Below, piece after piece: positions 7,276 through 45,349 of a stretch of 47,714 nt of DNA. How positions within the stretch are numbered: position 1 is the stretch's first letter; every line of letters starts with the position of its first letter. Source of the stretch: a virus (taxonomy: Duplodnaviria > Heunggongvirae > Uroviricota > Caudoviricetes). Made by a program: the position numbers and the translations under genes. The stretch covers positions 191,852 to 239,565 of IMG/VR virus record IMGVR_UViG_3300028805_000039, one strand, 5' to 3'. Under the pieces are notes generated by a model. That model made no database searches. It worked only from the letters and a program-made list of their open reading frames with translations, and was not told the origin of the DNA.

Positions 7276-7432
7276 AGCCCCGTGGTGTAAAGGTAGCACA
7301 CTGGACTTGTCGATATGGTGTAATGGAAGCATAATTGAATGCCTCTTGTAATTGAGAGGAGGCGCTAGTTCGATTCTAGCTATCGGCTCCATGACTCCAA
7401 TGGTGTAGGTTCGAATCCTGCCGGGGCTGCCA
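7276..7432 (+). tRNA. tRNA-Gln (anticodon TTG) interrupted between nt 34 and 35 by an 83-nt insert (7309-7391)
   Basis: 5' half AGCCCCG-TG-GTGTAAAGGTAGCAC-A-CTGGA-CTT (7276-7308) and 3' half TGAC-TCCAA-TGGT-GTAGG-TTCGAAT-CCTGC-CGGGGCT-G-CCA (7392-7432) join to a canonical cloverleaf. Confidence 0.6.
7309..7391 (+). tRNA. tRNA-like gene nested inside the tRNA-Gln anticodon loop (identity unclear; possible 8-nt loop TGTAATTG with GTA)
   Basis: Acceptor GTCGATA/TATCGGC + T + CCA, perfect T-arm GCTAG-TTCGATT-CTAGC, D-arm GTG-TAATGGAAG-CAT. Confidence 0.45.
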
Positions 7433-9915: not shown

Positions 9916-9990
9916 CCTCCCTTGGTGTAATGGTAGCACGGGTGGCTCTAACCCACCAGGCGTTGGTTCGATTCCGAACAGGGAGTGCCA
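9916..9990 (+). tRNA. suppressor tRNA, anticodon CTA (reads UAG); probably Gln-derived
   Basis: Anticodon stem GGTGG/CCACC with loop CTCTAAC (CTA at 9948-9950); D-arm GTG-TAATGGTAG-CAC; T-loop TTCGATT; 3' AGGGAGT-G-CCA resembles the phage tRNA-Gln(CTG) end; acceptor has a C1/T72 mismatch. Confidence 0.7.
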
Positions 9991-10039: not shown

Positions 10040-10260
10040 GCGGATTGGTGCAAAAGTTAACACGTCGGTCTCTGGGGCTATGGTGTAAAAAACATACTTG
10101 GAAAGCAAGGGCCTTGAGAAGTTGGGGCAGTACCAACTAGCTCCACCAAAAACCGAAGAACAGGGGGCGGTACCCTGATCCGCTGCCAACACGATAACAA
10201 ATAAGTGTATAAACGGATATGTGGCTGACGAACCTACTGTCATCTCCCTTCCTATGGTGA
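10040..10260 (+). ncRNA. GC-rich untranslated leader / candidate small RNA downstream of promoter 8
   Basis: ~220 nt without ORF; contains tRNA-like fragments (GGTGTAAA, ...GCTGCCA). Confidence 0.25.
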
Positions 10261-10961: not shown

Positions 10962-11231
10962 ATGAAATATGTACATTTTTCTGGTAGCAATGGTTATTGT
11001 GGAACTGATTATGATGAATATGTAATGTTTGATGACGATTGCCCTGAAAATGAAATTGATAATTATTCTACTGAATTAGCATATCAATGTGCTGAATCTT
11101 ATGAATATTTAGAAACTGGTTGGTATGATGATTTCGAAGATGAAGACGATCGTGAAGCATATTATGAAAATGCTTTAAGTTATTGTAGTTGGAATTATTG
11201 TTCTAAAGAAGAATATTTAAGAGGTTTTTGA
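10962..11231 (+). CDS. acidic hypothetical protein (89 aa)
   Basis: ORF, RBS GAAAGGA. Confidence 0.5.
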   Translation: MKYVHFSGSNGYCGTDYDEYVMFDDDCPENEIDNYSTELAYQCAESYEYLETGWYDDFEDEDDREAYYENALSYCSWNYCSKEEYLRGF

Positions 11232-11244
11232 TAAAATAAAATAT

Positions 11245-11356
11245 AGACAGATACAGCAACTTCTTTTTAAAAAGAATTTTAGCATAATGGTAATGCATTT
11301 GACTTGTTAATCAAAATATACGGTTCAAATCCGTGATAACTCTTTTAATCTGTCTA
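11245..11356 (+). ncRNA. tRNA-like structured RNA (terminal 8-bp helix AGACAGAT/ATCTGTCT, D-arm-like AGCATAATGGTAATGC, T-arm TACGG-TTCAAAT-CCGTG); YrlA/Y-RNA-like candidate
   Basis: Not a canonical tRNA (T-arm not adjacent to terminal helix); shares ACAGCAAC motif. Confidence 0.35.
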
Positions 11357-11365
11357 GTTAATATG

Positions 11366-11827
11366 CGGGCGTGGTGGAATAGGTAGACACCAGGGACTTT
11401 AGAGTATAAAGATACAAAGAGCATTAAGGTAGGAAACTCCTTAGATGAATGTTGGCTAATTCGGTGAAAGTCTTACTGAGACAACGCCGAGCTAAATTAA
11501 ATAATGATTTACTATCAATAAATTGAGTAGAGGTCCATATGATAGTAGTGGATAAATAAACAGCCTTTATTCAAGATCATTATTTATAAATGTGTAGAGA
11601 CTATATACTAACCACCTAAACAGAAATGCATGGTGAAAACATAGTCCAGACTACAACATTAAATAATAATCCTCTATCAGTAAATTGAATAGAGACCCAT
11701 ATGATAGTAGTGGGAATCTGCAAAGACTTTATTCAAGATTATTATTTAATGGCTATGGTGACATAGAGTAGTAGGAAAATCCCTTGGTCGAAAGACCGTG
11801 CGAGTTCAAATCTCGCCGCCCGCACCA
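11366..11827 (+). tRNA. tRNA-Leu (anticodon TAA), class II, with ~375-nt group-I-like intron (11401-11775) between U34 and A35
   Basis: 5' exon GCGGGCG-T-GGTG..CACC-AGGGA-CTT; 3' exon AAAA-TCCCT-long variable arm-GCGAG-TTCAAAT-CTCGC-CGCCCGC-A-CCA; intron follows U and ends in G; intron contains GACUA / UAGUCC P7-like pair. Confidence 0.6.
11401..11775 (+). mobile_element. group I-like intron in tRNA-Leu(UAA) anticodon loop (contains two ~95-nt internally duplicated segments)
   Basis: Insertion site identical to the classic cyanobacterial tRNA-Leu intron. Confidence 0.5.
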
Positions 11828-11953
11828 ATATGTTTCTAAATGGCACAATTTGTTGCCAAATTAGAGCCTTTTATTTCTAGTCCGGTTCTAATAGTTTTAC
11901 TCCTTTCCTTTCTGTTTTCTGTGGTCTTTAAAATATAAAGACCACACTTTTAT

Positions 11954-12030
11954 GCGGGTGTAGCTGAGTTGGTTCAAGCACCTGACTTTTAATCAGGGGA
12001 CCGTGGGTTCAAATCCCGCCACCCGCACCA
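11954..12030 (+). tRNA. tRNA-Lys (anticodon TTT)
   Basis: GCGGGTG/CACCCGC, anticodon stem CCTGA/TCAGG loop CTTTTAA, T-arm GTGGG-TTCAAAT-CCCGC, A73+CCA. Confidence 0.8.
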
Positions 12031-12046
12031 TTATAAAAAATTAAGG

Positions 12047-12526
12047 ATGAATAAAATGAAGTTAAGAGAACCTACAAAAGACGACATAGAAAAAGCAGTT
12101 GAATATTTTAAAGAAGTGCAAAAAATTCATACTGATGATAGTTATCGAGATTGGCTTTTATCTTGGGATTTTTCAAAATCAGGGTATGAATCTATTTATG
12201 ATGATGATATTCAATATAGCAAAATCTTAACAGAAGATGAAATTAATAAATTTCTTTTAATTAGTGAATATGAAGCTGATATAACTTGGAGGAATCCTGA
12301 TTATAAAAGTGAATATACTTATGAAGATAAAGATGCTTATTTCCCAACAGTAGTTAATTTGCTTTGTGCCAATGGAGTTTGGTATGAACTTTCTACTATG
12401 TGGGGACAAGGTGCGAGAACAGAATTTTTCCCTATAAAAGATTTTAAGAATTGGGAATATAGAGATAAAGTAAAATATTATTATAATATGATAAAAAAAG
12501 AATGGTATTGTTTAGTTAGAAAATAA
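12047..12526 (+). CDS. hypothetical protein (159 aa)
   Basis: ORF with RBS AAGGA. Confidence 0.5.
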   Translation: MNKMKLREPTKDDIEKAVEYFKEVQKIHTDDSYRDWLLSWDFSKSGYESIYDDDIQYSKILTEDEINKFLLISEYEADITWRNPDYKSEYTYEDKDAYFPTVVNLLCANGVWYELSTMWGQGARTEFFPIKDFKNWEYRDKVKYYYNMIKKEWYCLVRK

Positions 12527-12644: not shown

Positions 12645-14144
12645 ATGTCTAATTCTTTTATGAATGGTTTGCAGAATGCCACTAATTATGGCTATACTAC
12701 TAATGGTGCTCTTAGTCATAAGACCACTGGTAATGATTTGCTCGATATGTTCGCTCAGGCTGGCGCTTACCGTAGACGCACTGATAATGATTGCATTCTT
12801 CTTTTTAAGAATGCCTATATCGAGAATTCTAAGTATGCTCTTAAGTGTCTCTTCTATATGAGAGATATTCGTGGCGGTCAGGGAGAGCGTCGTTTCTTCC
12901 GTGTATGCTACAAGTGGCTGATTAGTTATGACAAGGCTGCGGCTAAGCGTAATCTTCAGTATATGAGCGAGTATGGTCGCTGGGATGATTTGCTTTATAT
13001 CTGTCAGGGCACTTCTCTTTGGAATGATGCAATGCAGATTGTTCGTTCTCAGCTTATGCTGGATATGGATAGTTGCAATCACAGCGATAAGACCGGTATT
13101 AGTTTGCTGGCTAAGTGGATGCCTAGTGAGAACACTTCTAGTGCTGTAACTAGAACTTTGGCTCATGAGGTTCGTACTGCTCTTGGTTTTAATCATCGTC
13201 AGTATCGTAAGACTCTTTCTGTGCTTCGTGATCGTTTGAACGTTCTTGAACGTTTAATGAGCGCTGGTCGTTGGGATGAAATCGAGTTCGATAAGATTCC
13301 TTCTAAGGCTGGTATGAAGTATAAGAATGCTTTTGCTCGTAGAGACATGATTGCTCAGAAGTATGAAAAGTTCGCTAAGGACGAAAATACTACTGTTAAT
13401 GCAAAGGCTCTCTATCCTTACGAAGTTGTTGAGCAGGCTCGCGCTTGCCGCGGAGCAGTTGACCGTGCTATGATTAATAAGTATTGGGATAATCTTGAAG
13501 ATTATTTCAATGGGGCTACTTTGGATGCTCTTTGCGTCATTGATACTTCTGGTTCTATGACTTGGGGCAGCAATCGTCCTTATCCTATTGATGTAGCAAT
13601 TTCTCTTGGCCTTTATTGTGCTGAAAGAGCCCGCGGTCCTTTCGCTGGGAATTACGTTTCCTTCTCTTCTCGTCCTCAGTTGATTCGTACTGAAGGTATT
13701 GATTTTGTTGATAAGGTATACCGTATCTATCGTACTAATCTTTGCCAGAATACGAACATTGAAGCTACTTTCGATTTGCTTCTTGATACTGCGATTCGTA
13801 ATCGTTGTAAGCAGGAAGATCTTCCTAAGTCTTTGATTGTTATTTCTGATATGCAGTTCGACCAGGCTCGCGGTGCTTATTACGGTGATCGTAGTTATGG
13901 TGTTAGAACTCTTATGGAAAGAATTGAAGGAAAGTGGAACCAGGCTGGATATAAGATGCCTAATCTTGTATTCTGGAATGTAAATGCTACTGCTAATCCT
14001 AATATGCCAATGGAAATGAAGGATGGCGTGTCTTACGTTTCTGGTTGCTCTCCTGTAATTTTCAAGCAGATTCTTACTGGGAAGACTGCGTTCGACCTTA
14101 TGTATGAAGTGCTTGATGCTGAGCGTTATACCGTTATCGGTTAA
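12645..14144 (+). CDS. vWA-domain protein with Ro60/TROVE-like N-terminal region (Rsr-like; or DUF2828-type)
   Basis: MIDAS DTSGSM, ..YVSFSS.., ..LIVISDMQF..; N-terminus TNGALSHKTTGNDLLDMFAQAG resembles Ro60 'NAGG..vsde.rL.rFl.lG'; no TAG. Confidence 0.5.
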   Translation: MSNSFMNGLQNATNYGYTTNGALSHKTTGNDLLDMFAQAGAYRRRTDNDCILLFKNAYIENSKYALKCLFYMRDIRGGQGERRFFRVCYKWLISYDKAAAKRNLQYMSEYGRWDDLLYICQGTSLWNDAMQIVRSQLMLDMDSCNHSDKTGISLLAKWMPSENTSSAVTRTLAHEVRTALGFNHRQYRKTLSVLRDRLNVLERLMSAGRWDEIEFDKIPSKAGMKYKNAFARRDMIAQKYEKFAKDENTTVNAKALYPYEVVEQARACRGAVDRAMINKYWDNLEDYFNGATLDALCVIDTSGSMTWGSNRPYPIDVAISLGLYCAERARGPFAGNYVSFSSRPQLIRTEGIDFVDKVYRIYRTNLCQNTNIEATFDLLLDTAIRNRCKQEDLPKSLIVISDMQFDQARGAYYGDRSYGVRTLMERIEGKWNQAGYKMPNLVFWNVNATANPNMPMEMKDGVSYVSGCSPVIFKQILTGKTAFDLMYEVLDAERYTVIG

Positions 14145-22670: not shown

Positions 22671-23600
22671 ATGCCAATTACAATTAATTCTTTTTATTAC
22701 AAAAATTCAAGTGGTAGTTATATAAATTGTTTGCCAGGATTTCCTTCTGTCGCAACTAAACCATTAACAGCATATGTAGCTGGCATAAATAATGAAAATG
22801 TGACAATCGCATTTTCTGGAAATGGATACTATAGCTAGAGTATTCAAGTATCAATTCCTTATAATATTTATTCAGGACCTAGTATTATCTATCCATCTCC
22901 TTCGACAGAAAATATTCCTGCTTATACATATTTTCCATATTCTGTTACAATCCCATCAGAACCTAATTTAAAACCTGAAAATATTGCTCCAGGAGTAACA
23001 ATATTAGGAGTAACAGGGGCCGAAGTAGAAGATAGTAGTGATTATGAAAAAAGATTTATAGAATAGGATAAATTAAATAGTACTATTTTTGAAACTTTAG
23101 GTTATTCAAAAGCTGATATAGTAGCTAAGGATGGAATGTAGTATACTACATATTATACTTTATCTTCTTCAATATTAAATGATAGTGATATTACACGAGT
23201 TGGGGCTTATACTTTTTATAGTAATGCTACTATTACATCAATAAATTATCCATAGTGTAATTATATTGGAAATGGGGGCTTCTATAATTGTAAAAATCTT
23301 ACTACAATTAATTTTCCAATGTGCAATATTATTGAAGTTAATGCTTTTGCAAATTGTTCTAATCTTATAACAGTTAGTATTCCATAGTGTCATTATATTC
23401 AAGCGGGAGCCTTTAATAATTGTATAAATTTAACAACTGTTTATTTGAATCAAACATCTTCTGTTTGTAAACTACTAAATTCACAAGTATTTAATAATTG
23501 TAGTAATCTTATATCAATATATGTCCCATTAAGTTTAATAGATAATTATAAATAGGATAATACTTGGCAATATTTTTCTAATAAAATTATAGGAATATAA
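22671..23600 (+). CDS. BspA-type leucine-rich-repeat protein (putative receptor-binding/tail fiber), in-frame TAGs
   Basis: C-terminal 22-aa repeats ..P*CNYIGNGGFYNCKNLTTINFPMCNIIEVNAF..; RBS GAGGTG. Confidence 0.55.
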
Positions 23601-23614
23601 AGGAGATATATCAT

Positions 23615-25096
23615 ATGAATTTAATATTCAATAATTTATTTGTTAAGCAATCTCAAAGTTATAATAGTTTACCAGCTATTGCTGTATTAAAACAATTATC
23701 TTCAATTCCTTCTTCTTATTATTCTTATACAATAAATAATGATATAATTAATATAAATTATATAAATTATTTATCAAATAACATTTCTACTCATACAGTA
23801 TCCTTTCCCTTATTAAATAATAATAATATAAATTTATCTATTGCGTCTTATTATATTAATAGTAATATTTTAATTCAAAATAATATTTCATTAAATCAAT
23901 CAAATTTAATTCCAGAAAATATTAAGAAAAATATTTCTCTTTTTAATATTATCGGGAATTTTATACCTAGTAATTACCGTCAATTTAGATTATTACCATC
24001 TATTTCTACTTATAATAATGAAAATATTTCATCAATTAGAGACATGTGTTTTTTAAGTTGGTTAGATTTATCTATAATTGATTTGCCATAGTGTAGTTAT
24101 ATTGGAAATAGTGCTTTTGCTGGTTGTTATAATCTTACTACAGTAAATTTTCCATAGTGTAGTTATATTGGAAGTTATGCTTTTTATAAATGTAATAGTC
24201 TTACTTCAATAAGTTTTCCATAGTGTAGTTATATTGGAAGTTATGCTTTTTGTAAATGTAATAGTCTTACTTCAATAAGTTTTCCATAGTGTAGTTATAT
24301 TGGAAGTCATGCTTTTTTTGATTGTCTTAGTCTTACTACAGTAAATTTTCCAATATGTAGTTATATTGGAAATGGTGCTTTTGCTGGTTGCTCTAATCTT
24401 ACTTCAATAAGTTTTCCAATATGTAGTTATATTGGAAATTATGCTTTTTAGAGTTGTATTAGACTTACAACAGTAGATTTTCCATTGTGTCCTTATATTG
24501 GAAGTTATGCTTTTTGCCGTTGTTCTAATCTTACTTCTGCAAATTTTCCATATTGTAGTTATATTGAAAGTTATGCTTTTTATAGTTGTATTAGACTTAC
24601 TTCAATAAATTTTCCAGTATGTAGTTATATTGAAAGTTATGCTTTTTATTGGTGTATAAATCTTACTACAGTAGATTTTCCATAGTGTAATTATATTGGA
24701 GATTATGCTTTTGGCCATTGTCCTAGTCTTACTTCAATAAATTTTCCAGTATGTAGTTATATTGGAGAGGGTGCTTTTAATTATTGTCCTAGTCTTACTT
24801 CAATAAGTTTTCCATAGTGTAGTTATATTGGAAGTCATGCTTTTTAGAATTGTCGTAATCTTACTACAGTAGATTTTCCATAGTGTAGTTATATTGGAAG
24901 TAGTGCTTTTTAGAATTGTTCTAGTCTTACTACTATTTATTTAAACTAGACATCACAAATATGTTCATTATATAATAGTGATGTATTTTCTAGTTGTAAT
25001 AAACTTCAATCAATTTATGTCCCACAAAGTTTAGTCGAAGCTTATCAAACCGATGCTCGTTGGAAATCATTATCAACTAAAATTATAGGTGTATAA
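23615..25096 (+). CDS. BspA-type LRR repeat protein, 13 x 66-nt repeats, ~12 in-frame TAG
   Basis: track ORFs 23615..24091 and 24485..24685 in same frame; repeat FP[*IVLY]CSYIGSYAF[*YCF].C.SLTSI.; ends TAA 25094-25096. Confidence 0.6.
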
Positions 25097-25176
25097 AAAA
25101 AATAAAAAAAATAGAATTATTATATTAATTAAATAATATAATAATTCTATTTTTAATTTCAACAAAAAAAATAAAA

Positions 25177-26712
25177 ATGAAGGATGTGAATATATTGAGT
25201 TATCAAATAATAATCCCTTCAGATGTTGCGCCATTGCGCGCCCCAGTTATTCCTACTTTAAGAATTATAGATGAAGATACAGCGGAAATATATGTAAAAT
25301 ATCCTTATTCTACATATGTATCAGGCAATATAAATATAGATTTAGATATTGGTAATACTTCAATAAAAGTAGATAGCGTTAAAATAAATAAATTAATTAG
25401 TTTTTTAGAAGGTAATTCTGAATTTGATTATAGTATAATATAGTAGTATAATAAAATAGGAATAGGATTATATAATAAATTTAATTCAAGAATTGCAAAT
25501 TTTCCATAGTGTACTTGTATTGGAAATAGTACTTTTTAGAATTGTTCTAGTCTTACTTCTGCAAATTTTCCATTATGTAATTATATTGGAAGTTATGCTT
25601 TTTAGAATTGTCTTAGTCTTACTTCAATAAATTTCCCATAGTGTAGTTATATTGGAAGTAGTGCTTTTTAGAATTGTCGTAATCTTACTACAGTAGATTT
25701 TCCATAGTGTAGTTATATTGGAAGTTTGGCTTTTGAGGATTGTGATAATCTTACTTCAATAAATTTCCCATAGTGTAGTCATATTGAAAGTTTGGCTTTT
25801 TATGATTGTGATAGTCTTACTTCAATAAGTTTTCCATAGTGTAGTTATATTGGAAATCGTGCTTTTTATGATTGTCGTAATCTTACTACAGTAGATTTTC
25901 CATAGTGTAGTTATATTGAAAGTAATGCTTTTTGCTATTGTCCTAGTCTTACTTCAATAAGTTTTCCATAGTGTAATTATATTGGAAGTTATACTTTTTA
26001 TAGTTGTATTAGACTTACTTCAATAAATTTTCCATAGTGTAATTATATTGGAGAGAGTGCTTTTTATTATTGTTCTAATCTTACTTCAATAAGTTTTCCA
26101 ATATGTAGTTATATTGGAAGTTATGCTTTTTAGAGTTGCTCTAATCTTACTTCAATAAATTTTCCATAGTGTAGTTATATTGGAGAGAGTGCTTTTTATA
26201 ATTGTCGTAATCTTACTTCAATAAATTTTTCATTATGTAGTTATATCGAGAATAGTGCTTTTTATCGTTGCTCTAATCTTACTTCAATAAATTTTCCAGT
26301 ATGTAGTTATATTGGAAGTTATGCTTTTTAGAGTTGTTATAGTCTTATTTCAGTAGATTTTCCATAGTGTAGTTATATTGGAGAGAGTGCTTTTTAGAGT
26401 TGTTATAGTCTTACTTCAATAAATTTCCCATAGTGTAGTTATATTGGAAGTTATGCTTTTTAGAGTTGCTCTAATCTTACTTCAATAAATTTCCCATAGT
26501 GTAGTTATATTGGAAGTCGTGCTTTTATGTCGTGTTCTCGTCTTACTACTATTTATTTAAACTAGACATCACAAGTATGTTCATTATATAATAGTTATGT
26601 ATTTTCTAGTTGTAATAAACTTCAATCAATTTATGTTCCACAAAGTTTAGTCGAAGCATATAGAAACCATAGCAGATGGCGTTATTTTTCTAATAAAATA
26701 ATAGGGATATAA
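25177..26712 (+). CDS. BspA-type LRR repeat protein with tandem TAG-TAG (25441-25446) and ~16 further in-frame TAG
   Basis: track ORF 25177..25443 continues in frame through the repeats to TAA 26710-26712. Confidence 0.55.
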
Positions 26713-26714
26713 AT

Positions 26715-26825
26715 AAAATAAAATAATAGGGATATAAATAAATAAAATAATTTTTAAATTATTATTTTATTTATTTATATCCCTATTATTTTATTTTATT
26801 TATATCCCTATTATTTTATTAGAAA
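26715..26825. repeat. perfect palindrome / bidirectional terminator between convergent LRR genes; centre of a ~1.4-kb diverged inverted duplication
   Basis: ATAAAATAATAGGGATATAAATAAATAAAATAATTTTTAAATTATTATTTTATTTATTTATATCCCTATTATTTTAT. Confidence 0.7.
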
Positions 26826-28572
26826 AATAACGCCATTGATAATTATTCTTATACATACTTATTAAACTTTGTGGAACATAAATTGATTGAAGTTTATTAC
26901 AACCAGAAAATACATAACTATTATATAATGAACATATTAGTGATGTCTAGTTTAAATAAATAGTAGTAAGATTAGAACAATCATAAAAAGCACCCTGTCC
27001 AATAGAACGACATATTGGAAAACTTACTGTAGTAAGACTAGAACAATTCTAAAAAGCCCAACTTTCAATATAACTACACTATGGAAAATCTACTGTAGTA
27101 AGATTACGACAATTATAAAAAGCACTACTTCCAATATAACTACATACTGGAAAATTTATTGAAGTAAGTCTAATACAACTCTAAAAAGCATAACTTTCAA
27201 TATAACTACACTATGGAAAACTTATTGAAGTAAGATTAGAACAATCCTAAAAAACCCTATTTCCAATATAACTACATCTTGGAAAATTTGCAGAAGTAAG
27301 ACTATTACAATTCAAAAAAGCATAACTTTCAATAGAACGACATATTGGAAAATTTGCAGAAGTAAGACTAGAACAATTCAAAAAAGCATAACTTCCAATA
27401 GAACGACATATTGGAAAATTTGCAGAAGTAAGACTAGAACAATTCAAAAAAGCACTCTCTCCAATATAACTACACTATGGAAAATCTACTGTAGTAAGAT
27501 TACGACAGTACTCAAAAACCCTACTTCCAATATAACTACATCTTGGAAAATTTGCAGAAGTAAGACTAGAACAATAGCCAAAAGCACCACTTCCAATCTA
27601 AGTGCACAATGGAAAATCTACTGTTGTAAGTCTAATACAATCATAAAAAGCAAGATTTCCAATCTCAGTGCACAATGGAAAACTTATTGAAGTAAGACTA
27701 TTACAATTATAAAAAGCCCAATTTCTAATATAACTACACTATGGAAAATCTACTGTTGTAAGTCTAATACAATTCTAAAAAGCATAACTTTCAATATAAC
27801 TACACTATGGGAAATTTATTGAAGTAAGACTAAGACAATCCTCAAAAGCCAAACTTCCAATATAACTACATACTGGAAAATTTATTGAAGTAAGATTACG
27901 ACAATCCTAAAAAGCACTACTTCCAATATAACTACATACTGGAAAATCTACTGTAGTAAGATTACGACAATTCAAAAAAGCATAACTTCCAATAGAACGA
28001 CATATTGGAAAATTTGCAGAAGTAAGACTAGAACAATTCTAAAAAGCACTATTCCCGATATAACTACACTATGGAAAATCTACTGTAGTAAGACTAAGAC
28101 AATTCTAAAAAGCATAACTTCTAATATAACTACACTATGGAAAATTTGCAGAAGTAAGATTACGACAATTATAAAAAGCACTACTTCCAATATAACTACA
28201 TACTGGAAAATTTATTGAAGTAAGTCTAATACAACTATAAAAAGCATTACTCTCAATATAACTACACTATGGAAAACTAATAGTAGTAATATTGCTAAAA
28301 TAAGCAAAGGCGGCAGCACGCACTGAAGTTATTGTTGAACCTATAAGATTTAAATTATCATCATTAAGATTGCCATTAACATAATCATAAAAAACATCAT
28401 ATATTAAACTCATACTTTTACTACTAATACCAGCATTAATAAAAGTAGAAGGGCCATAGTCAACATTAAAATTTATTTTATCTGGAAAAATAGTAATATT
28501 ATTATCCTTAATTTCAGGATTAATTCCAGATATTGTCCCACTAGGAATCTATAACTATATACTCAATATCAA
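26800..28572 (-). CDS. BspA-type LRR repeat protein (inverted paralog of 25177..26712), many in-frame TAG
   Basis: Frame shared with track ORF 27247..27447; TTG start overlapping upstream TGA (TTGA), RBS AGGAGAGG; stop TAA (plus 26800-26802). Confidence 0.5.
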
Positions 28573-29552
28573 TCCTCTCCTAATTTTTCAATATGATTTA
28601 ACCATTCATTAATAGTAATAGTTTCCATACCCATGCCTTCCATAACAGAACGCTATCTAATCTAATTAGAAATATACATTTTATCATTAGTAGGAATAGT
28701 ATTCCATAAACCTTTAAATTCTTTATAATATTTTGAAAAACGAATTTCTGTACTATCACGATACTCTTTATTTTCTTGATTAATCCATTCTGGTTTATTC
28801 ATAGTATAATAAGCATCAAAAATCATCATAACACTATAAAACATCGCCTTATCTTTAAGTCCACGATTTAAAAATTCATGTACTAAACATTCATTAGAAT
28901 CAAGCATATTCTTATAGGTTTTTAAAATATATTTAGGATCATGACGGCAAACACTTTCATCACGCCATTTCCAAAGATAAAATGGTATAGGACAATATTT
29001 TACATTAGTACTTAAATTCTAACATAAAATATTAAAATAACTATCTTCATGAATTGTTAAATTATTATTCCATTTAATATTTTTATCAAGTAAATAATGT
29101 CTACTATGTACTTTACCATGCACAAAAGTACTATCCATTTCATGATTTACATAAACAATTTCTTTGTTTTCAGGATTACGACTTTCTTCAATAAACATTG
29201 ATACAAGACTATCAAATCCACCATTTTTAATTTCCTAAAAAATTATAAAGAATGCACAAACAGTATAAAACATATCATCCGCATCACAAAACATAACATA
29301 ATCTGCTGTTGCATGGTTTAAACAAGCATTTCTAGTAGCACTAACGCCATGATGTTCTTCTTTATAATATTTAACTTCAAATGGATAAGAATTTAATAAA
29401 TCTTCTGATAAAAATACATCTGAACCATCATTACAAATTATTACCCCAACATCTTTAAAATCAACACTTTGCTAAATGGCAATACTATCTAATAAATTTT
29501 TTATAACATCATCAGTTTCTTTATATTGAGGTACTAAAATCTATAATTTCAT
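28569..29552 (-). CDS. family 2 glycosyltransferase (GT-A fold), 6 in-frame TAG
   Basis: ..GVIICNDGSD.., ..MFCDADDMFY..; extends track ORF 28662..28907 both ways; codon-by-codon check; RBS AAAGGAG. Confidence 0.65.
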
Positions 29553-36638: not shown

Positions 36639-37907
36639 ATGCTAAATAAAGATGGAGTTCGTGAACTTGCTTATGTTGTCCTTGTTGATGGGATTGAACC
36701 TATTCCTGGATATGATAGAGTAGAACATGCTCTTATTGGTGGTTGGCGAGTAATTGTGCAGAAGGACCAGTTTAAAGTTGGTGACCCAGCTATTTATTTT
36801 GAAATTGATAGTAAGGTGCCAAAGGATAGAGAATGTTTTTCCTTCCTTGAAAAGCGTAATTATAAGGTAAAGACCTTAAAGATGTGTAAAACTATTTCAC
36901 AGGGGCTTCTTATGCACGCAAGTGATTTCGGTTGGAAAGCTTATCGGGGTATGGATCCACCTTTTGATGAACCTGCTTGTATTATTGACGATAAAAATCA
37001 TTGTTATTATGTCGATGATGAATCTCGTTTCTTGACTTCTATTCTTGGCGTAACCTATGCCGATGATGAAGATAATGCTCGTAAGGCTCCTTCTGTTGAT
37101 AAGTATAAAAAGATGGCCCAGCGTCATCCTAATATCTTTAAGAAGTCTTGGGCACGCTGGATGATGAAGCGTGAGTGGGGTCGTAAGCTCATGTTTATGT
37201 TCTTCGGTAAGAAGAAAGATAAGAAAAATGGGTGGCCTTCTTGGGTTTCAAAGACCGATGAGGAGCGTGTACAGAATATGCCTTGGATTCTTAATGATAC
37301 TGGTAGTTGGGTTATTACTGAAAAAATTGATGGTAGTTCTACTACCTTTACTATGAAACGTGGTAAGCGTGGTAAAAATGAGTTTTATGTCTGTTCTCGT
37401 AATGTATGTTTTGATAGTGTAGATAAACCTTGCTATTATGACACTAATATTTACTGGGAAATGGCACAAAAGTATGATATGTATAATGTTCTTTCAAAAT
37501 TTCTTGAAGAGCATCCCGATATTGAATGGGTAACTATTCAAGGCGAGACCTTCGGTAATGGTATCCAAAAGAGAGATTACTCTATGACAGAGCATGATTT
37601 CCGAGCCTTCAATCTTATTACTCCTAATAAAGGTCGTTGGGGCACTATGGAAATGTATAATACATTATTCACAGCAAAATATCGTATTCCTTGTGTGCCA
37701 GTCATTAACAAAGATTTTCACTTTGATTCTCTTGATATGTTGAAGGACGATGACGATAGTAATAGAGTAGATACTCTTCTTAACTTAGCTACTGGTAATT
37801 CTCAAATTGATGGACTTCCTCGTGAAGGATTTGTTCTCCGTTCTGCGGATGGCACTAAATCTTTTAAAGCAGTAAGTAATAGTTTCCTTCTTAAATATCA
37901 TAGTTAA
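36639..37907 (+). CDS. ATP-dependent RNA ligase (Rnl-type nucleotidyltransferase)
   Basis: motif I EKIDGSS (KxDG), motif IV EGFVLR, motif V KSFKAV. Confidence 0.55.
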   Translation: MLNKDGVRELAYVVLVDGIEPIPGYDRVEHALIGGWRVIVQKDQFKVGDPAIYFEIDSKVPKDRECFSFLEKRNYKVKTLKMCKTISQGLLMHASDFGWKAYRGMDPPFDEPACIIDDKNHCYYVDDESRFLTSILGVTYADDEDNARKAPSVDKYKKMAQRHPNIFKKSWARWMMKREWGRKLMFMFFGKKKDKKNGWPSWVSKTDEERVQNMPWILNDTGSWVITEKIDGSSTTFTMKRGKRGKNEFYVCSRNVCFDSVDKPCYYDTNIYWEMAQKYDMYNVLSKFLEEHPDIEWVTIQGETFGNGIQKRDYSMTEHDFRAFNLITPNKGRWGTMEMYNTLFTAKYRIPCVPVINKDFHFDSLDMLKDDDDSNRVDTLLNLATGNSQIDGLPREGFVLRSADGTKSFKAVSNSFLLKYHS

Positions 37908-37917
37908 GGAGGAAACT

Positions 37918-38103
37918 ATGACTAATAGAAATTATGACGCATCTAAATTAACGAATGAAGAATTAATTAATAGATTAAAATCTCATTCAATGTATTATGA
38001 TGAATATTGGGATTTGGAAAAATTAGAACTTGTAAAAGAAGATACAGCAGCAATTCTTTTTGAAGCAGCTAATAGGTTAGAACAGTTCTGGAAAGGAAAA
38101 TAA
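37918..38103 (+). CDS. small protein (paralog of 39203..39526 N-terminus)
   Basis: TNEELINRLK..YWDLEKLEL shared. Confidence 0.4.
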   Translation: MTNRNYDASKLTNEELINRLKSHSMYYDEYWDLEKLELVKEDTAAILFEAANRLEQFWKGK

Positions 38104-38117
38104 ATAAAAAGGAAACT

Positions 38118-38315
38118 ATGACTTAGTTTGTTCAAAATTTTATAGGTAAATCTTTAGACGACATAACTAAAGATATAAATGATTATATTAAATTGACAGG
38201 CTATAAAATAATTACTATGACAATGATAATTGAAGATAAATATATTTCTACTCCAAGAGTATTAAATAATTATATTCCTACTTATAAAGTATTAGTTTGT
38301 TTTGAAAAGGAATAA
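38118..38315 (+). CDS. small protein, paralog family of 3 (38118, 38318, 38732), 1 in-frame TAG as 3rd codon
   Basis: MT*FVQNFIGK...VLVCFEKE. Confidence 0.4.
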
Positions 38316-38317
38316 AT

Positions 38318-38500
38318 ATGAAAAAACAATTTATTAAAATTTTTGCTGAAACAACTATGAGCGCTTTAGAATCTAAAATCAATAATTATTTAGAAAATAA
38401 TCCAGTTAAAATAATCTCTATTTCATATAATTATATTAATAATGCTGTATTTAAAGAAAGAGCATTTATATATTTTGAGGAGGAACAAAACAATGAGTAA
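38318..38500 (+). CDS. small protein, same paralog family
   Basis: track ORF. Confidence 0.4.
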   Translation: MKKQFIKIFAETTMSALESKINNYLENNPVKIISISYNYINNAVFKERAFIYFEEEQNNE

Positions 38501-38729
38501 ACTTGATATTGCTAAAGATATTATTAAAGGGTTCTATTTCTTAGCTGATTGCGGCATCTATAATACTCGTAATATTATGGGAGATCCAATGACAACAATT
38601 TATGAAAATAATGGACTTATAATTGATATTTGTTATGAATGGAGTTATTTTGAAGTTTTTGGACTTTCCAAAACTGATTTTAATGAATTAGAAAAGTTTT
38701 ATAACACATTAGAAAAAGAGGAAGTATAA
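38494..38729 (+). CDS. hypothetical protein
   Basis: RBS GGAGG + ATG 38494 within track ORF 38442..38729. Confidence 0.4.
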
Positions 38730-38731
38730 AA

Positions 38732-38902
38732 ATGAAATAGTATATTAAATTATTTGGTAGTACTGGCAATGATACATTAACCAGTGAAATTAATACTTAT
38801 TTAGAAGAAAATAATTGTAAAATTGTTTCTGCACAATTAGCAATGAGTTCTGACTTTCCAAATTATAAAACTATATTAATTATTTTTGAGGAGATTGAAT
38901 AA
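38732..38902 (+). CDS. small protein, same paralog family, TAG as 3rd codon
   Basis: MK*YIKLFGSTG...ILIIFEEIE; TAA 38900-38902. Confidence 0.4.
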
Positions 38903-39210
38903 TGTTAAATCGCACTTAGTATAGAGCTTATTTACGAAAAAATAAAAAAAATAAAAATCTTTCTATTTGCCCTAAGTGTAATCATAAATCACTTTTCTAT
39001 TCAACAGCAAGAGGTGAAAATGATACGGTTATTAAATGCGATATTTGCAAAGATATAGTTTTTGAAGGCCCTGATGTTACTCGTATGGTGCCGCCTGGAA
39101 TTTATCTTCCATTGCCTTTGGATATTTTTGAAATTGTTCTTAAAACCCCTCCAAAAGAAGAAGATAAAGTTCAAGAAGCAGAATATGTAGAAGTAAAAGA
39201 AAATGATTGA
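38902..39210 (+). CDS. zinc-ribbon protein, 1 in-frame TAG
   Basis: CPKC...CDIC; ATG overlaps previous TAA (TAATG). Confidence 0.45.
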
Positions 39211-39526
39211 TTGTAATTTTAATGTATCTAATTTTACTAATGAAGAATTAATTAATAGATTAAAATATCTTGCTGATTTCTATTGGGAATATTGGGATTT
39301 AGAAAAATTAGAATTACTTGAAGCTGATACAGCTGCTGTTTTATATGAAGCAGCTAAACGATTAGAAAAATTTTATTCTTTAAATACCAATGAAATGTGT
39401 GATTGCTATCGTCCAAATATGTATAGAGATAATATAGCAAGATGTTTTGGTACAAAAGAAATTGATCCATGTAATTGTAATGGAAATAAAAATAAATGTG
39501 ATTTTTATAATAAAGGAGAAAAATAA
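39203..39526 (+). CDS. hypothetical Cys-rich protein
   Basis: track ORF. Confidence 0.45.
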   Translation: MIDCNFNVSNFTNEELINRLKYLADFYWEYWDLEKLELLEADTAAVLYEAAKRLEKFYSLNTNEMCDCYRPNMYRDNIARCFGTKEIDPCNCNGNKNKCDFYNKGEK

Positions 39527-39529
39527 ATA

Positions 39530-40420
39530 ATGAAAATTGGTCGCATGATTGGAATTAGTGTAGTTGTATTGCTTTTAGTTTTTGTTTTGCTTAATTCATT
39601 TACAATTGTTCAATCTGGTTTTACAGGAGTCCCTGTAACTTTTGGTAAAGTAGCAAATTATACAGTTGGCGAAGGTCCGCATTTCCATTCTCCATTTACT
39701 GATATTATCAAAATGGATAATCATGTCCAGAAACATACTATTACAATGAGTGCTTTTTCTAAGGACATTCAGGAAACTGCCGTTACTTATACTATTAACT
39801 ATAAAATTAGCGAAAATGATGCTATGACAATTTATCGTACAATTGGCAAAAATTACTTTGAAACAGTTATTTCCCCTAATATTAGTGAAGCGGTAAAAAC
39901 TGCCACAGCACATTATACAGCTGAAAGTTTGGTTAATAATCGTGATAAGTTGAGCCAGGAGATTGAAGTAATTTTAACTGATTTGCTCGAAAAGTATAAA
40001 ATTATTATCGTTGGTACTTCCATTGAAGATCTGGACTTCACTGATGCTTTCACAAATGCAGTTGAAGCAAAGCAGGTCGCAGCACAGAATAAATTGAAAG
40101 CACAGACCGAGCAGGAACAGCAAACAATGGAAGAGGAAGCAAAGGCAAAACGTGCTGTTATTCAAGCTAACGCAGAAGCAGAGCAGGCTAAAATCGCAGC
40201 AAATGCAGACCTTGAAGTAGTAAAAATTCAAGCTGAAGCAAGTCTTTATGCTGGCCAGCGAGAAGCTGAAATGAATCAGCGTATCGCAGAAGCTTTAACT
40301 CCACAGTTGATTAGTTATTATTGGATTAAACAATGGGATGGTGAGTTGCCTGATACTATGTTGGGTGATGGCACTGATATAATGCTCGCATTAGATACTG
40401 CTACTGGTGTTACAAAGTAA
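39530..40420 (+). CDS. SPFH/band-7 (prohibitin/stomatin-like) membrane protein
   Basis: N-terminal TM + ..IVQSGFTGVPVTFGKV..EGPHFHSPF.. + coiled-coil. Confidence 0.6.
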   Translation: MKIGRMIGISVVVLLLVFVLLNSFTIVQSGFTGVPVTFGKVANYTVGEGPHFHSPFTDIIKMDNHVQKHTITMSAFSKDIQETAVTYTINYKISENDAMTIYRTIGKNYFETVISPNISEAVKTATAHYTAESLVNNRDKLSQEIEVILTDLLEKYKIIIVGTSIEDLDFTDAFTNAVEAKQVAAQNKLKAQTEQEQQTMEEEAKAKRAVIQANAEAEQAKIAANADLEVVKIQAEASLYAGQREAEMNQRIAEALTPQLISYYWIKQWDGELPDTMLGDGTDIMLALDTATGVTK

Positions 40421-40431
40421 ATCTATATTTA

Positions 40432-40468
40432 TAAGAGAGGGGCGACCCTCTCTTATTTGATTTTTTAA
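40432..40468 (+). terminator. rho-independent terminator
   Basis: AGAGAGGGG-CGA-CCCTCTCT + T-rich. Confidence 0.7.
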
Positions 40469-40485
40469 AAAAAATATTATATAAT
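40457..40485 (+). promoter_or_regulatory. sigma70-like promoter copy 14
   Basis: TTGATT 40457-40462, TATAAT 40480-40485. Confidence 0.6.
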
Positions 40486-40647
40486 ATTTATAAGGGAAAG
40501 GGGACAAATATTATATAAATATTTTTAATACACCAGAAATTTAGTTATACATTTCAACATGGGCTTTTGGTACTATATGTGGATTAATATTTGCTTGGAC
40601 TATGGAAATAGAGAATCAAAAATATTTAAAAAATAAGGAAGAAAATA

Positions 40648-40914
40648 ATGATTGATATAATCCGATATCCTGATAAACCAATTTTAAAATATACTTGCTT
40701 ATGTTCTTTATGCGGCACTCAATGGATGTGTGATAAAGCCGACATAAAATGGAAAGATGATTTTTTTATTGGAACATGTCCTCTTTGTGGATTTCATAAT
40801 TATTGTTATAATTATGAAAAAGAAAAAAGATGGACTGATTTTCAATATTATAATGGCTCTTATGAAATTCCTATATTAAATAGAGAGAGGACTGAAAATA
40901 GTGACTATTGCTGA
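40648..40914 (+). CDS. Cys-rich hypothetical protein
   Basis: track ORF. Confidence 0.4.
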   Translation: MIDIIRYPDKPILKYTCLCSLCGTQWMCDKADIKWKDDFFIGTCPLCGFHNYCYNYEKEKRWTDFQYYNGSYEIPILNRERTENSDYC

Positions 40915-41365
40915 ATGTCAAGTTGAGACACAAAAGCATATTGAAAAAGTAAGAAAATATATTCGTTTTCTTACTGATAAATTAACTACTCGTGGAGTAA
41001 ATCATGATGCAGCAAAATTAAAATCACCAGAAGTGGAATTATTTGCTGAACATACTGAAAAATTAAAAAATCTTGAATATAATAGTGAAGAGTATAAAGC
41101 AAGTTTAGCAGCGTTAAAACCAGCATTAGATCATCATTATGCTGCATATCGTCATCATCCAGAGCATTTCTCCAATGGAATTAATGATATGAATCTTGTT
41201 GATTTATGCGAAATGATTGCTGATTGGAAGGCTGCTAGTGAAAGACAGAATAGTGGAAATTTAATTAAAAGTATTGAAATAAATGCCGATAGATTTCATA
41301 TTGATGCTCAATTAAAACAAATCTTATTAAATACAGCAAAATTATATGATGAAGAGGAAAAATAA
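40901..41365 (+). CDS. His-rich hypothetical protein (possible metal-dependent hydrolase)
   Basis: NHDAAKL, HHYAAYRHHPEHF. Confidence 0.3.
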   Translation: MTIAECQVETQKHIEKVRKYIRFLTDKLTTRGVNHDAAKLKSPEVELFAEHTEKLKNLEYNSEEYKASLAALKPALDHHYAAYRHHPEHFSNGINDMNLVDLCEMIADWKAASERQNSGNLIKSIEINADRFHIDAQLKQILLNTAKLYDEEEK

Positions 41366-41483
41366 ATGAATATTATTAGTATGGTTTTTATTGGACTTAT
41401 GATAATTTTAATTATTGGAGCAAGTATTAATAATAGTGATTAAAAAAATATTGTAACTTAAATAAGTTACAATATTTTTTTAA

Positions 41484-41512
41484 TTGAAATTTATAAAAAA
41501 ATATTATATAAT
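41484..41512 (+). promoter_or_regulatory. sigma70-like promoter copy 15
   Basis: TTGAAA 41484-41489, TATAAT 41507-41512. Confidence 0.7.
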
Positions 41513-41544
41513 ATTTATAGAAAATAAAAAGGATTGGTTTAATT

Positions 41545-41754
41545 ATGTTTAATTTTATTAAAAAATTATATCTATTTATTGCTAAAATATTTGCAGGAAT
41601 GTTAGGTGGTATAGGAGTAATACTTGGCCTTTATTATCCTTTATTTTTATTTATGGGGCCTGATTCTGTTTTCCCATATTTAATGGGAGGTATCGGCGGA
41701 GTAGTTTATGCTATTGGATTTTTAGACAAACTTTTAAATGGAGATTTTAAATGA
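41545..41754 (+). CDS. small membrane protein
   Basis: track ORF. Confidence 0.4.
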   Translation: MFNFIKKLYLFIAKIFAGMLGGIGVILGLYYPLFLFMGPDSVFPYLMGGIGGVVYAIGFLDKLLNGDFK

Positions 41755-41927
41755 ATAGTAATATTTGGTTTATTATTTGTGATATTTGGCTTATTATTTT
41801 CAATACTTATTTTGTAATTAATAAGACAGGCCATTGGCAATTTAATCTTGCTGCTGCTATCTGTTTAACTATTTCTGCTAGTATTTTAGCAGTCCAAGAA
41901 ATAAAAAGAAGAAAGGATAAAAGATAA
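41751..41927 (+). CDS. small membrane protein (58 aa)
   Basis: ATG 41751, TAA 41925-41927, overlaps next start (TAATG). Confidence 0.35.
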   Translation: MNSNIWFIICDIWLIIFNTYFVINKTGHWQFNLAAAICLTISASILAVQEIKRRKDKR

Positions 41928-42718
41928 TGCCAGTTCATGATGAATTAGGAAAAAGAATGAAAAGATATGAAGCAATTTCTCAAATTAGTTTAATGCGGCG
42001 AACTCCTGTTGCTATTCGTATTGATGGAAAAGCTTTCCATACTTTTACTAAACATTTACGGAAACCTTATGATAAACTTTTCCATGAAGCAATGGAAAAT
42101 ACTATGAAATATCTTTGTGAGAATATCCAAAACTGTGTATTTGGATATACACAATCTGATGAAATTACTCTTATTCTTACCGATTATGAAACTTTAAATA
42201 CAGACGCTTGGTTTGGTTATGAAGTTCAAAAACTTTGTTCTATTAGTGCAAGTATGGCAACTATGAAATTTAATCAAGAATTTCAAAGACTAGCTGAAGA
42301 TTATATTTGGGAATGGAGCCATGATATGGTTCCACAATCTGTTGGACTATGGGAAAAAGAAAAAACATATCATACTCATTTAAAAGATTGCATCGCACGA
42401 GGGGCAATGTTTGATGCTCGTTGTTTTAACATTCCAAAAGAAGAAGTAGTAAATCTTGTTCTTTGGCGGCAATTTGATGCGGAACGCAATTCTATTAACT
42501 CTATGGGGCAAAGTTATTTTTCTCATAAGGAACTTCAAAATAAGAATTGCGGCGAAATTATTAAAATGCTCGAAGATAAAGGTGTCTTTTGGAATAATCA
42601 TTCTAATGCTTTTAAGCATGGGGTTGCTTGTATAAATAATGGCGATGGTTGGGAATTAGATTATAATATGCCAATGCTTAAAGGAGAAGACAGATATTAT
42701 TTAGAGAGGTTTGTATGA
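41927..42718 (+). CDS. Thg1-like 3'-5' RNA polymerase (tRNA-His guanylyltransferase family)
   Basis: ..VAIRIDGKAFHTFTKHLRKPYD...VFGYTQSDEITLIL.. matches Thg1 ..VRLDGRNFHRF...AYGQSDEYSFVF.. Confidence 0.7.
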   Translation: MPVHDELGKRMKRYEAISQISLMRRTPVAIRIDGKAFHTFTKHLRKPYDKLFHEAMENTMKYLCENIQNCVFGYTQSDEITLILTDYETLNTDAWFGYEVQKLCSISASMATMKFNQEFQRLAEDYIWEWSHDMVPQSVGLWEKEKTYHTHLKDCIARGAMFDARCFNIPKEEVVNLVLWRQFDAERNSINSMGQSYFSHKELQNKNCGEIIKMLEDKGVFWNNHSNAFKHGVACINNGDGWELDYNMPMLKGEDRYYLERFV

Positions 42719-43188
42719 GTGAAAAGCATAAGGTAATATATGATAGAGAAAGTGATCAGTATTATCAGCGTAGACGAGTGGGAAATCAAACTATTGAATT
42801 AGGAATGAATTGTACTGATTGGATTGAAGAGAATAAAGAATCTTGGTGGAATATCTTTCTAACAATCTATAATAAACGTAAAGATGCCTTTACAAATATG
42901 GATAAAAAGGTTATAACAGGTCAAAATCCATTTGCTACTTTTGCGACTGCACGCGATATGTTCTATGATGTAGAGGCTGAAGTTTTAAAGAGAGAATTAG
43001 AGTACGGTCATAGCAATAAAGTAGTAATTTTCTGCACTTGGGTAGACAATAGAAGACGTGATGCTTATTATCGTGTACTTAATAAACATGGATATGACTG
43101 GGGAAAGTGTAGTGGTGGAAAATGTATCATGAAAACTTTTACTAGAGATAATTTAGCTAAAGAAATAATTGAAGAGGACTCAAAATAA
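42715..43188 (+). CDS. hypothetical protein
   Basis: track ORF. Confidence 0.4.
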   Translation: MSEKHKVIYDRESDQYYQRRRVGNQTIELGMNCTDWIEENKESWWNIFLTIYNKRKDAFTNMDKKVITGQNPFATFATARDMFYDVEAEVLKRELEYGHSNKVVIFCTWVDNRRRDAYYRVLNKHGYDWGKCSGGKCIMKTFTRDNLAKEIIEEDSK

Positions 43189-44057
43189 TGAAATATCAAG
43201 AAATTTCTAATTGTTTTACTTATAAATATGCTTATTGTCAAACTGAAAAAGATAATTTAATTCTTCATAAAGTAGAAGAGCATTTAGCAGAAGTAATTGA
43301 TAATGGTTATTTTGATCTAAAAAGTATTTTTTTTATCGCACTTGAGGGTAGCCAAAATTATGAATTAGATTTGCCGAATAGTGATATTGATACTAAATTA
43401 ATTGTTCTTCCTAATTTTGAAGATTTTGTACTAAATAATAAACCAGTTAGTACAACACATATCCGAAAAAATGGAGAGCATATTAGTTTTACCGATGTTA
43501 GAAATTATTTTTCCTCTTTGAGAAAACAGAATATTAATTTTGTTGAGACACTATTTTCTCCTTGGATTATTGTAAATAAAATATATGAAGAAGAATTTAA
43601 AGCTCTTTACAAAAATCGAGAATTAATAGCACGATATAATCCTGTCAAAGCTGTTAAAACTATTGGCGGAATTGCGACTGATAGATATAAAGCAATTTAT
43701 AATCTCAATTCTAAAAGAGTTGATGTCATTAAACAGTATGGCTATGATGGAAAGGCAATTAGTCATCTTTGCCGTCTTACTCAATTTTTATATGATTATA
43801 CAAGTGAGTGCAAATATAGAGTATGTATGGTTCCTCTCTATAAACAATTAATTCTTGATTTAAAACAAAATAAAATTAACCCAGCTAGAGCAAAAAATAT
43901 TGCAGAAGCAGAATATGAGACAATTCAAAGAATTGTTGATAATTATACAAAACAACATGAAGAAACTATAAATGAAGAAGCTGAAAATCTTCTTACTTAT
44001 TTACAATTTAGTCTCGTGCAAGCATCTTTTTTGGCTGACTGTGCGGCACAGGGTTGA
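43188..44057 (+). CDS. Pol-beta-superfamily nucleotidyltransferase
   Basis: ..LEGSQNYELDLPNSDIDTKLIV.. (GS..SD.D). Confidence 0.5.
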   Translation: MKYQEISNCFTYKYAYCQTEKDNLILHKVEEHLAEVIDNGYFDLKSIFFIALEGSQNYELDLPNSDIDTKLIVLPNFEDFVLNNKPVSTTHIRKNGEHISFTDVRNYFSSLRKQNINFVETLFSPWIIVNKIYEEEFKALYKNRELIARYNPVKAVKTIGGIATDRYKAIYNLNSKRVDVIKQYGYDGKAISHLCRLTQFLYDYTSECKYRVCMVPLYKQLILDLKQNKINPARAKNIAEAEYETIQRIVDNYTKQHEETINEEAENLLTYLQFSLVQASFLADCAAQG

Positions 44058-44076
44058 TACATCCGCATCTCAAATT

Positions 44077-44116: not shown

Positions 44117-44119
44117 TAG

Positions 44120-44148: not shown

Positions 44149-44181
44149 ATATATGTAAAAAATAAAAAAGGAATGAAATAA

Positions 44182-45339: not shown

Positions 45340-45349
45340 AGTTTTTATT

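Follow-up and report, generated by a model that had tools for sequence, protein, structure and literature searches.

The window, by which we mean the whole analysed stretch of 47,714 nucleotides, contains on its + strand a tRNA-Leu(UAA) gene that is divided into a 5′ exon at 11365–11399 (tRNA positions 1–34, the last base being U34) and a 3′ exon at 11776–11827 (from A35 to the encoded CCA). The intervening ORF-less intron (11400–11775) is 376 nt long, is preceded by U11399, ends in G11775 and lies between U34 and A35. The exons were delimited with ARAGORN on the joined sequence and, for the 5′ exon, with intron-less homologues; the intron was delimited with the RF00028 match, the family alignment and its covariation, and the ORF list. 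When joined, 11365–11399 and 11776–11827 form an 87-nt class-II tRNA-Leu(UAA) with a long variable arm, the anticodon loop CUUAAAA and an encoded CCA (ARAGORN), and the predicted spliced junction reads ...GGGACUU|AAAAUCCC.... Three intron-less phage tRNA-Leu(UAA) genes (L001–L003) with the same D and anticodon arms read ...GGGACTTAAAATCCC..., so the uninterrupted state is known and the junction is confirmed. The 3′ exon, beginning AAAATCC..., is common to 88 viral and 51 bacterial homologues. An initial annotation of this DNA had already recognised a class-II tRNA-Leu with the loop CTT|AAAA (anticodon UAA), an insert that follows a U and ends in G, and the classic insertion point of tRNA-Leu(UAA) introns, all of which hold. 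Its coordinates required correction: the tRNA begins at G11365 and not at 11366, the insert has 376 nt and not 375, and the junction is 11399|11776 and not 11400|11776, since the latter leaves an 8-nt loop (ARAGORN). ARAGORN does not call the interrupted gene in the window, and a tRNA scan of the window found no second tRNA-Leu(UAA).

The window has a low GC content (about 30%). When TAG is read as a sense codon across 15–31.5 kb, the stop-to-stop open frames that reach 150 aa or more number 48 rather than 29, an amber-suppressor tRNA(CUA) is present at 9917–9986, and 15 ORFs contain 11 TAA versus 59 TAG codons. The BspA-type repeat proteins encoded in the window are full of TAG codons, with 11–22 in frame in each of the leucine-rich-repeat genes at 23585–28587; the genes near the tRNA array have no in-frame TAG. 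In 15 sampled genes TTA and TTG make up 44% of the leucine codons, which suggests that a tRNA-Leu(UAA) is useful to the phage. The window also encodes an RNA ligase (PF09414), a Thg1-like tRNA-His guanylyltransferase, a nucleotidyltransferase, a metallophosphoesterase, a Ro60/TROVE-like RNA-binding protein (phrog_850) and an HNH endonuclease. The RNA-handling genes, which are found at 12645–14144 and 36639–46800, look like a toolkit for tRNA repair and maturation and might bear on the processing of a second interrupted tRNA gene.

This second gene, at 7276–7429, scores 48.6 bits as a tRNA in Rfam and has its anticodon loop interrupted by 83 nt (7309–7391); without this insert the gene reads as a tRNA-Gln(UUG) joined after U34. 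The insert in turn resembles a tRNA, having an acceptor stem of 7 bp, a T arm and CCA, and it is not a group I intron because 83 nt is too short. Only one intact homologue of the nested tRNA-Gln (L294) was found by pattern search, and tRNAs within tRNAs of the same kind have been reported in Lak phages (PMC6784885) and in jumbo phages (PMC13037316). A further tRNA-like sequence (11273–11344), 20 nt upstream of the tRNA-Leu, has an anticodon loop of 8 nt (ARAGORN anticodon 'tgtt') and mismatches at three pairs of the acceptor stem, and is conserved in L289 (Rfam 39.9 bits).

At Rfam gathering thresholds no family is reported over the tRNA-Leu intron. In a permissive search of 701 nt the group I model RF00028 aligns with 11390–11655 over its whole length (1–253) at 27 bits (E 8.6e-5), below the gathering threshold of 50 bits. 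The check proposed in the initial annotation therefore yields a full-length match with a score under threshold, and taken alone this match is only suggestive. In the alignment U11399 occupies the splice-site U and is paired with G11419; a 91-nt repeat described below is handled as a 60-nt insertion in P6, and both 91-nt insertions are absorbed as gaps. No other ribozyme family in Rfam matched at E up to 10 in 11250–11950. One compact homologue (L144, 208 nt) reaches 54.3 bits against RF00028, and none of the remaining homologous introns in that scan appears at the gathering threshold, which shows why the family to which the intron belongs escapes annotation. It is the homologues, and not the Rfam score, that settle the group I identity.

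A search with a pattern from the P7 region revealed a related, ORF-bearing intron in a viral contig (L011), where it splits a class-II suppressor tRNA(CUA). At least 119 viral contigs contain the 17-nt P7′–P9 motif common to the window and L011, ATAGTCCAGACTACAAC, as do at least 120 bacterial genomes, most occurrences belonging to tRNA-Leu(UAA) genes split at this site; a P9b pattern gave 46 viral matches. To map splice sites, every upstream U that might end the 5′ exon was spliced to the 3′ exon, and the products that ARAGORN accepts as a tRNA were kept, so the U at the end of every mapped 5′ exon is a constraint of the search and not an independent result. Mapping of 158 viral loci gave a tRNA from 113, of which 101 were assigned: 88 are tRNA-Leu(UAA) genes split at U34|A35, and the rest are a few tRNA(CUA), Lys(UUU), Arg(UCU), Leu(UAG), Ser(UGA) and Ile(UAU) genes. 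The last intron base is G in 100 of the 101. Viral intron lengths are bimodal (205–500 nt without an ORF and about 600–930 nt with one), and the ORFs of the longer relatives match HNH endonuclease models weakly but consistently, as in L044, L078 and L036 (proteins of 148–203 aa). In bacteria, 51 tRNA-Leu(UAA) genes are split at U34|A35, mostly in Bacteroidales and Clostridia; outside these groups, phyla such as Acidobacteriota and Omnitrophota have family members in Lys(CUU), Arg(UCU) and Lys(UUU) genes, and introns with the ATAGTCCAGACTACAAC motif and the same architecture are present in bacterial Ile tRNAs too. This bacterial distribution agrees with a 2026 survey of group I introns in bacterial tRNA genes (PMC13011429).

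Altogether the family is present in more than 150 IMG/VR viral contigs, and the nearest relatives of the window intron are all viral or phage-like: L289 (96% identical), then L044, L078 and L055 (about 75–84%). L044 is the closest relative to bear an ORF, which is of HNH type and lies at the P6 position. Among GenBank phages no close homologue of the window intron was found, the BLAST search with 11000–12200 having matched the neighbouring tRNA-Lys only. A look-up of the protein encoded next to the gene retrieved nothing but the same phage, differing at 1 position in 7.5 kb. The published but unannotated records of Lak megaphages do contain members of the family. In Lak-C1 (L291, MK250029.1) a tRNA-Leu(UAA) at 591–1330 is split twice by group I-like introns, one of 308 nt in the D loop (after GGU, ending in G) and one of 340 nt at U34|A35, and removal of both gives a clean tRNA-Leu. 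The D-loop site is not among the insertion sites listed in the accessible portion of the bacterial survey (PMC13011429). In Lak-B1 (L292, MK250020.1) a tRNA(CUA) carries a 245-nt family intron (1081–1325).

The tRNA(CUA) genes of Lak-B1, L011, L040, L084, L088 and L123 are split between U35 and A36 by family introns. The phages concerned probably recode TAG, and the tRNA that executes the recoding would then itself need splicing. In some other members (L026, L018, L034, L030 and L162) P9a, P8 or P6 is enlarged by an insertion of unrelated sequence, and the P9 insertion of L026 holds a tRNA-like sequence with a GGTTCGAATCC T loop. Two intron-carrying viral contigs have a further structured RNA beside the tRNA array, namely a ROOL RNA in L012 (3472–4037, 277.9 bits) and a tmRNA in L031 (6451–6796, 81.6 bits).

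For the analysis of the fold, 24 ORF-less tRNA-Leu introns, the window intron included, were aligned (alignment A1); the window aligns along the whole core. RNAalifold without hints recovers from this alignment the anticodon stem across the intron together with P2, P3, P4, P6, P8, P9, P9a and P9b, with compensatory changes in 41 of 49 pairs. P1, P5 and the P7 pseudoknot were added to this structure by hand before pairs were counted. In the full model 92.5% of cells pair, versus 30–39% in controls in which the 3′ partners were slid by 1–3 columns, compensatory changes are seen in 45 of 61 pairs, and none of 500 shuffles reaches the observed pairing values. The initial annotation had allowed that a group I core might not be modelled; the core is modelled here and is backed by covariation across the homologues.

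P1 (11397–11421) is formed by C11397, U11398 and U11399 of the exon and intron U11400, which pair with A11418, G11419, A11420 and G11421, and a small extension hairpin (11404–11407/11412–11415) was drawn by inspection. The U·G wobble of P1 is present in 21 of the 24 aligned rows, with the first-exon bases visibly misaligned in five rows. The helix pairs but is almost invariant across the alignment, and has only 4 bp in the window; no convincing P10 helix could be drawn for the window intron. The P2 hairpin (11426–11442) has a GAAA tetraloop at 11433–11436 and comes from RNAalifold with compensatory changes in all 10 pairs. P3 is a long-range helix between GUUGG (11451–11455) and CUAAC (11608–11612), seen by RNAalifold and in the pair counts, with 5 of 5 pairs compensatory and 95% paired. 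P4 (11461–11466/11485–11490; 5 of 6 pairs compensatory) encloses P5 (11470–11473/11479–11482) through A-rich J4/5 and J5/4; P5 lies in a poorly aligned stretch and is weakly supported (69% paired). P6 (11498–11502/11582–11586) is compensatory in 5 of 5 pairs and forms the base of the first of the 91-nt repeats.

P7, which was tested explicitly as a pseudoknot, joins GACUA (11599–11603) to UAGUC (11642–11646), with 99.2% pairing in the pair counts and 2 compensatory pairs over the 24 rows. The initial annotation had pointed to a P7-like GACUA/UAGUCC pair, and these are indeed the strands of P7, UAGUC being followed by a C. G11599–C11646 stands at the place of the guanosine-binding pair and this G–C is invariant in all 24 rows. 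P8 (11613–11635; 11613–16/11632–35 and 11621–22/11627–28, with a GAAA loop at 11623–11626) has 5 of 6 pairs compensatory and contains CCUAAA...CAUGG, which by inspection resembles the 11-nt tetraloop receptor. The P9 domain (11650–11772) consists of an almost invariant closing helix (ACUAC 11650–54/GUAGU 11768–72) and two hairpins that covary, P9a (11657–11671/11737–11751, within the second repeat) and P9b (11753–57/11762–66), the latter with a GUGA tetraloop. The intron ends at the terminal guanosine (omega-G), G11775, which marks the 3′ splice site.

The two repeats are direct repeats of 91 nt each, at 11496–11586 and 11658–11748, and are 81% identical; the initial annotation was right about the duplication and had put its length at about 95 nt. 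A 17-mer shared by the copies occurs in the window at these two places only, versus 0.15 occurrences expected even at 3 mismatches. Copy 1 replaces the P6 hairpin, of which it forms the stem and an extension, and copy 2 replaces P9a, such that the bases of the stems are the P6 and P9a helices of the family. The evidence for both copies is the repeat itself, the folds and the structure counts, to which the covariation of P6 adds in copy 1. Each copy is predicted to fold into a long AU-rich hairpin (folding z-scores −2.3 to −5.9) composed of an outer stem, a 13-nt 5′ internal loop, an 11-bp helix UUGAGUAGAG/CUUUAUUCAA and an apical hairpin NCCA-UAUGAUAGUAG-UGGN′, and a predicted pseudoknot joins CUAUCA, which lies in the internal loop, to UGAUAG in the loop of the apical hairpin.

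A metagenome scan found the module in three contigs only. L289 (a 241-kb contig) and L288 belong to close relatives of the window phage with the same intron, and all other homologous introns are free of these insertions. The third contig, L290, has a lone copy (10078–10170, 85% identical to copy 2 of the window) in the spacer that separates a tRNA-like sequence from a tRNA-Leu gene with an HNH-bearing intron, so the module is not confined to introns. Across six copies 98.5% of cells pair, versus 38–56% in slid controls, and both partners vary in seven pairs, with every one of the four helices represented; with six sequences only, this covariation is suggestive and not conclusive. No Rfam family matches the module. 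Seven viral matches to its 17-mer core were set aside as chance matches in coding sequence (peptide PYDSSG). An HDV-like (theta) ribozyme was rejected on the same absence of an Rfam match and on the topology, which is wrong, there being no P3/L3 element between the helices. A MITE with a target-site duplication was likewise rejected, the TAAA flanks being the conserved P6 flanks of all family members. The most economical reading is that the module is a peripheral, possibly selfish, structured element tolerated by the ribozyme.

Several features identify the insert as a group I intron. The 5′ exon ends in a U that forms a U·G wobble with an internal guide (U11399·G11419), and the intron ends in omega-G (G11775). 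The P4–P6 and P3–P8 domains are present, the latter with its long-range P3, and the P7 pseudoknot carries a G–C pair at the guanosine-binding position, binding itself being predicted. The anticodon stem is built by the two exons around the U34|A35 site and covaries across the intron, and the sequence is homologous to other tRNA-Leu(UAA) introns, with an end-to-end alignment to 23 viral homologues. An ORF for a homing endonuclease is absent, the largest ORF in the window intron having 35 aa. The tRNA-Leu insert is therefore a genuine ORF-less group I intron, and one that would be expected to splice itself. By inspection, and by comparison with the Azoarcus intron, it looks like a member of subgroup IC3: P5abc is absent, P2 is present, L2 is GAAA, L9b is GUGA, and CCUAA/CAUGG-type sequences (CCUAAA/CAUGG) occur in P8.

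The reading that we favour, with a probability of roughly 0.88, is that, within the tRNA array of a TAG-recoding phage, a tRNA-Leu(UAA) gene is split at U34|A35 by an ORF-less intron of this group I family, which would be removed as follows. The precursor would fold such that the anticodon stem and P1, with its U11399·G11419 pair, present the 5′ splice site. A free guanosine, bound in P7 at G11599–C11646, would attack after U11399; G11775 would then take the guanosine site and the freed 3′-OH of U34 would attack at G11775|A11776. Joining of the exons would give a mature tRNA reading UUA and UUG. These steps are the standard chemistry of group I introns. The HNH ORFs of the relatives would explain a spread of the family by homing, a history that we infer; the copy in the window may have lost such an ORF or may never have had one. 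The two 91-nt pseudoknotted hairpins extend P6 and P9a, which are insertion-tolerant positions, and might slow or impair folding of the intron.

The score of only 27 bits, the short P1 and the confinement of the insertions at 11496–11586 and 11658–11748 to the window, L288 and L289 could also be taken to mean that the intron has decayed, that its fold is still recognisable but that it ceased to splice owing to loss of the ORF and acquisition of the two insertions, leaving the tRNA-Leu as a pseudogene. We consider this improbable. All core helices are intact and the invariant positions of the family are retained in the window, and the insertions coincide precisely with loops L6 and L9a, which in relatives are occupied by ORFs or other extensions. 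Moreover, L289 and L288, at 4–10% divergence, retain the intron and both modules with compensatory changes, which argues for selection on structure, and the window has no other tRNA-Leu(UAA).

A different placement of the junction is a still weaker proposition. U11399 and U11400 are both U, and a cut after U11400 would leave 8 nt in the anticodon loop or, if the 3′ site shifted to 11777, produce an ochre suppressor with a UUA anticodon; the loops expected are CUUUAAA or CUUUAAAA, against CUUAAAA for 11399|11776. ARAGORN accepts alternative products, and an ochre suppressor might suit a phage that recodes TAG with a tRNA(CUA). However, Rfam puts U11399, and not its neighbour, on the splice-site U opposite G11419, and homologous introns whose first base is A, G or C leave no ambiguity about a junction after U34. 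With a 3′ site at 11777 the last intron base would be A, in a family that ends almost without exception in G, and TAA still behaves as a stop codon, as its scarcity relative to TAG in the 15 ORFs indicates. Such a junction is very improbable.

Equally little weight can be given to the idea that the insert is no ribozyme but a DNA insertion (MITE-like, for instance) or an intron removed by proteins, like the tRNA-like inserts of Lak phages: the 91-nt blocks do have MITE-like inverted-repeat ends, the tRNA-Gln of the same window does hold an insert that is not group I and phage tRNA introns have been called enigmatic (PMC6784885), but the sequence outside the repeats aligns over its full length with group I introns and all core helices covary, no bulge-helix-bulge motif is evident, the position is 34/35 and not 37/38, the length is 376 nt, and the flanks of the modules are the conserved flanks of P6 and P9a and not target-site duplications.

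The mechanism has been known in principle since group I introns at U34|A35 were described in 1990, and what stands out is the setting in phage tRNA genes. The window, the more than 150 viral contigs and the two Lak genomes indicate that ribozyme-type introns are common there, and the tRNAs concerned include the suppressors that perform stop-codon recoding. Because ARAGORN makes no call and Rfam scores fall under threshold, inventories of phage tRNAs, and arguments from codon usage that build on them, are likely to be incomplete. The viral nearest relatives and the occurrence of the same family in tRNA-Leu genes of Bacteroidales make an exchange of tRNA introns between phage and host testable. 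The 91-nt module offers a small, well-defined structured RNA with a predicted fold. A bolder and rather unlikely extension is that tRNA group I introns are not purely selfish but gate tRNA maturation in TAG-recoding jumbo phages and that the module is an autonomous RNA. If this were true, gating of tRNA-Leu(UAA) and of tRNA(CUA) (L011 and Lak-B1) could influence the translation of late, TAG-rich genes, and the module would be a coloniser of intron loops that could be released or act after excision of the intron.

Among known introns a close counterpart is that of the cyanobacterial and plastid tRNA-Leu(UAA), known since 1990 (Xu et al. 1990, cited in PMC3984707). It occupies the same gene at the same U34|A35 site, is likewise ORF-less, has an anticodon stem across the intron and a P2 and lacks P5abc, and in both introns the closing helix of P9 runs directly into the terminal G; the likeness is one of gene, site and architecture. 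The window intron differs in its phage host, in the two hairpins of P9 and in the duplicated module in P6 and P9a. [quoted passage not shown] The survey covers bacterial genomes and not phages, whereas the nearest relatives of the window intron are all in viral contigs and the window intron has no ORF.

Phage group I introns of the classical kind (T4 td, nrdB and sunY, Twort, SPO1 and Bastille) are, like the one described here, phage-borne; they splice themselves, and many are made mobile by an HNH or GIY-YIG endonuclease. They are of IA-type subgroups. They split protein-coding genes, whereas the window intron splits a tRNA gene. The Azoarcus intron is, like that of the window, a compact anticodon-loop intron with GAAA in L2 and a GNRA loop in P9, and the two share a tetraloop-receptor-like motif in P8, CCUAA(G/A)...(U/C)AUGG, identified by inspection. 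The Azoarcus intron differs in the tRNA that it interrupts and in its insertion position, and the two modules make the intron of the window longer by about 170 nt. The Azoarcus intron, an IC3 intron in pre-tRNA-Ile, serves as a structural model system (PMC13168695).

The initial annotation had called an intron of this type unusual in a phage. The literature searched agrees: a 2014 review placed all phage group I introns to date in protein-coding genes despite the many phage tRNA genes (PMC3984707), and Devoto et al. 2019 described the "enigmatic" introns in Lak phage tRNAs, some of them encoding a tRNA, as previously unreported, with no mention of group I (PMC6784885). The number of viral contigs and the Lak genomes that carry the family argue otherwise. 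Our literature search, which had partial coverage, found no paper on group I introns in phage tRNA genes. A 2026 survey of jumbo phages with alternative codes repeats the Lak account (PMC13037316), and the introns of both studies were found with tRNAscan in eukaryotic mode and none was classified as group I (PMC6784885, PMC13037316). These introns and those of the window are alike in being intervening sequences in tRNA genes of TAG-recoding gut phages, and the window has a Lak-type insert of its own in the tRNA-Gln at 7276–7429; the insert in its tRNA-Leu is, by contrast, of the ribozyme type.
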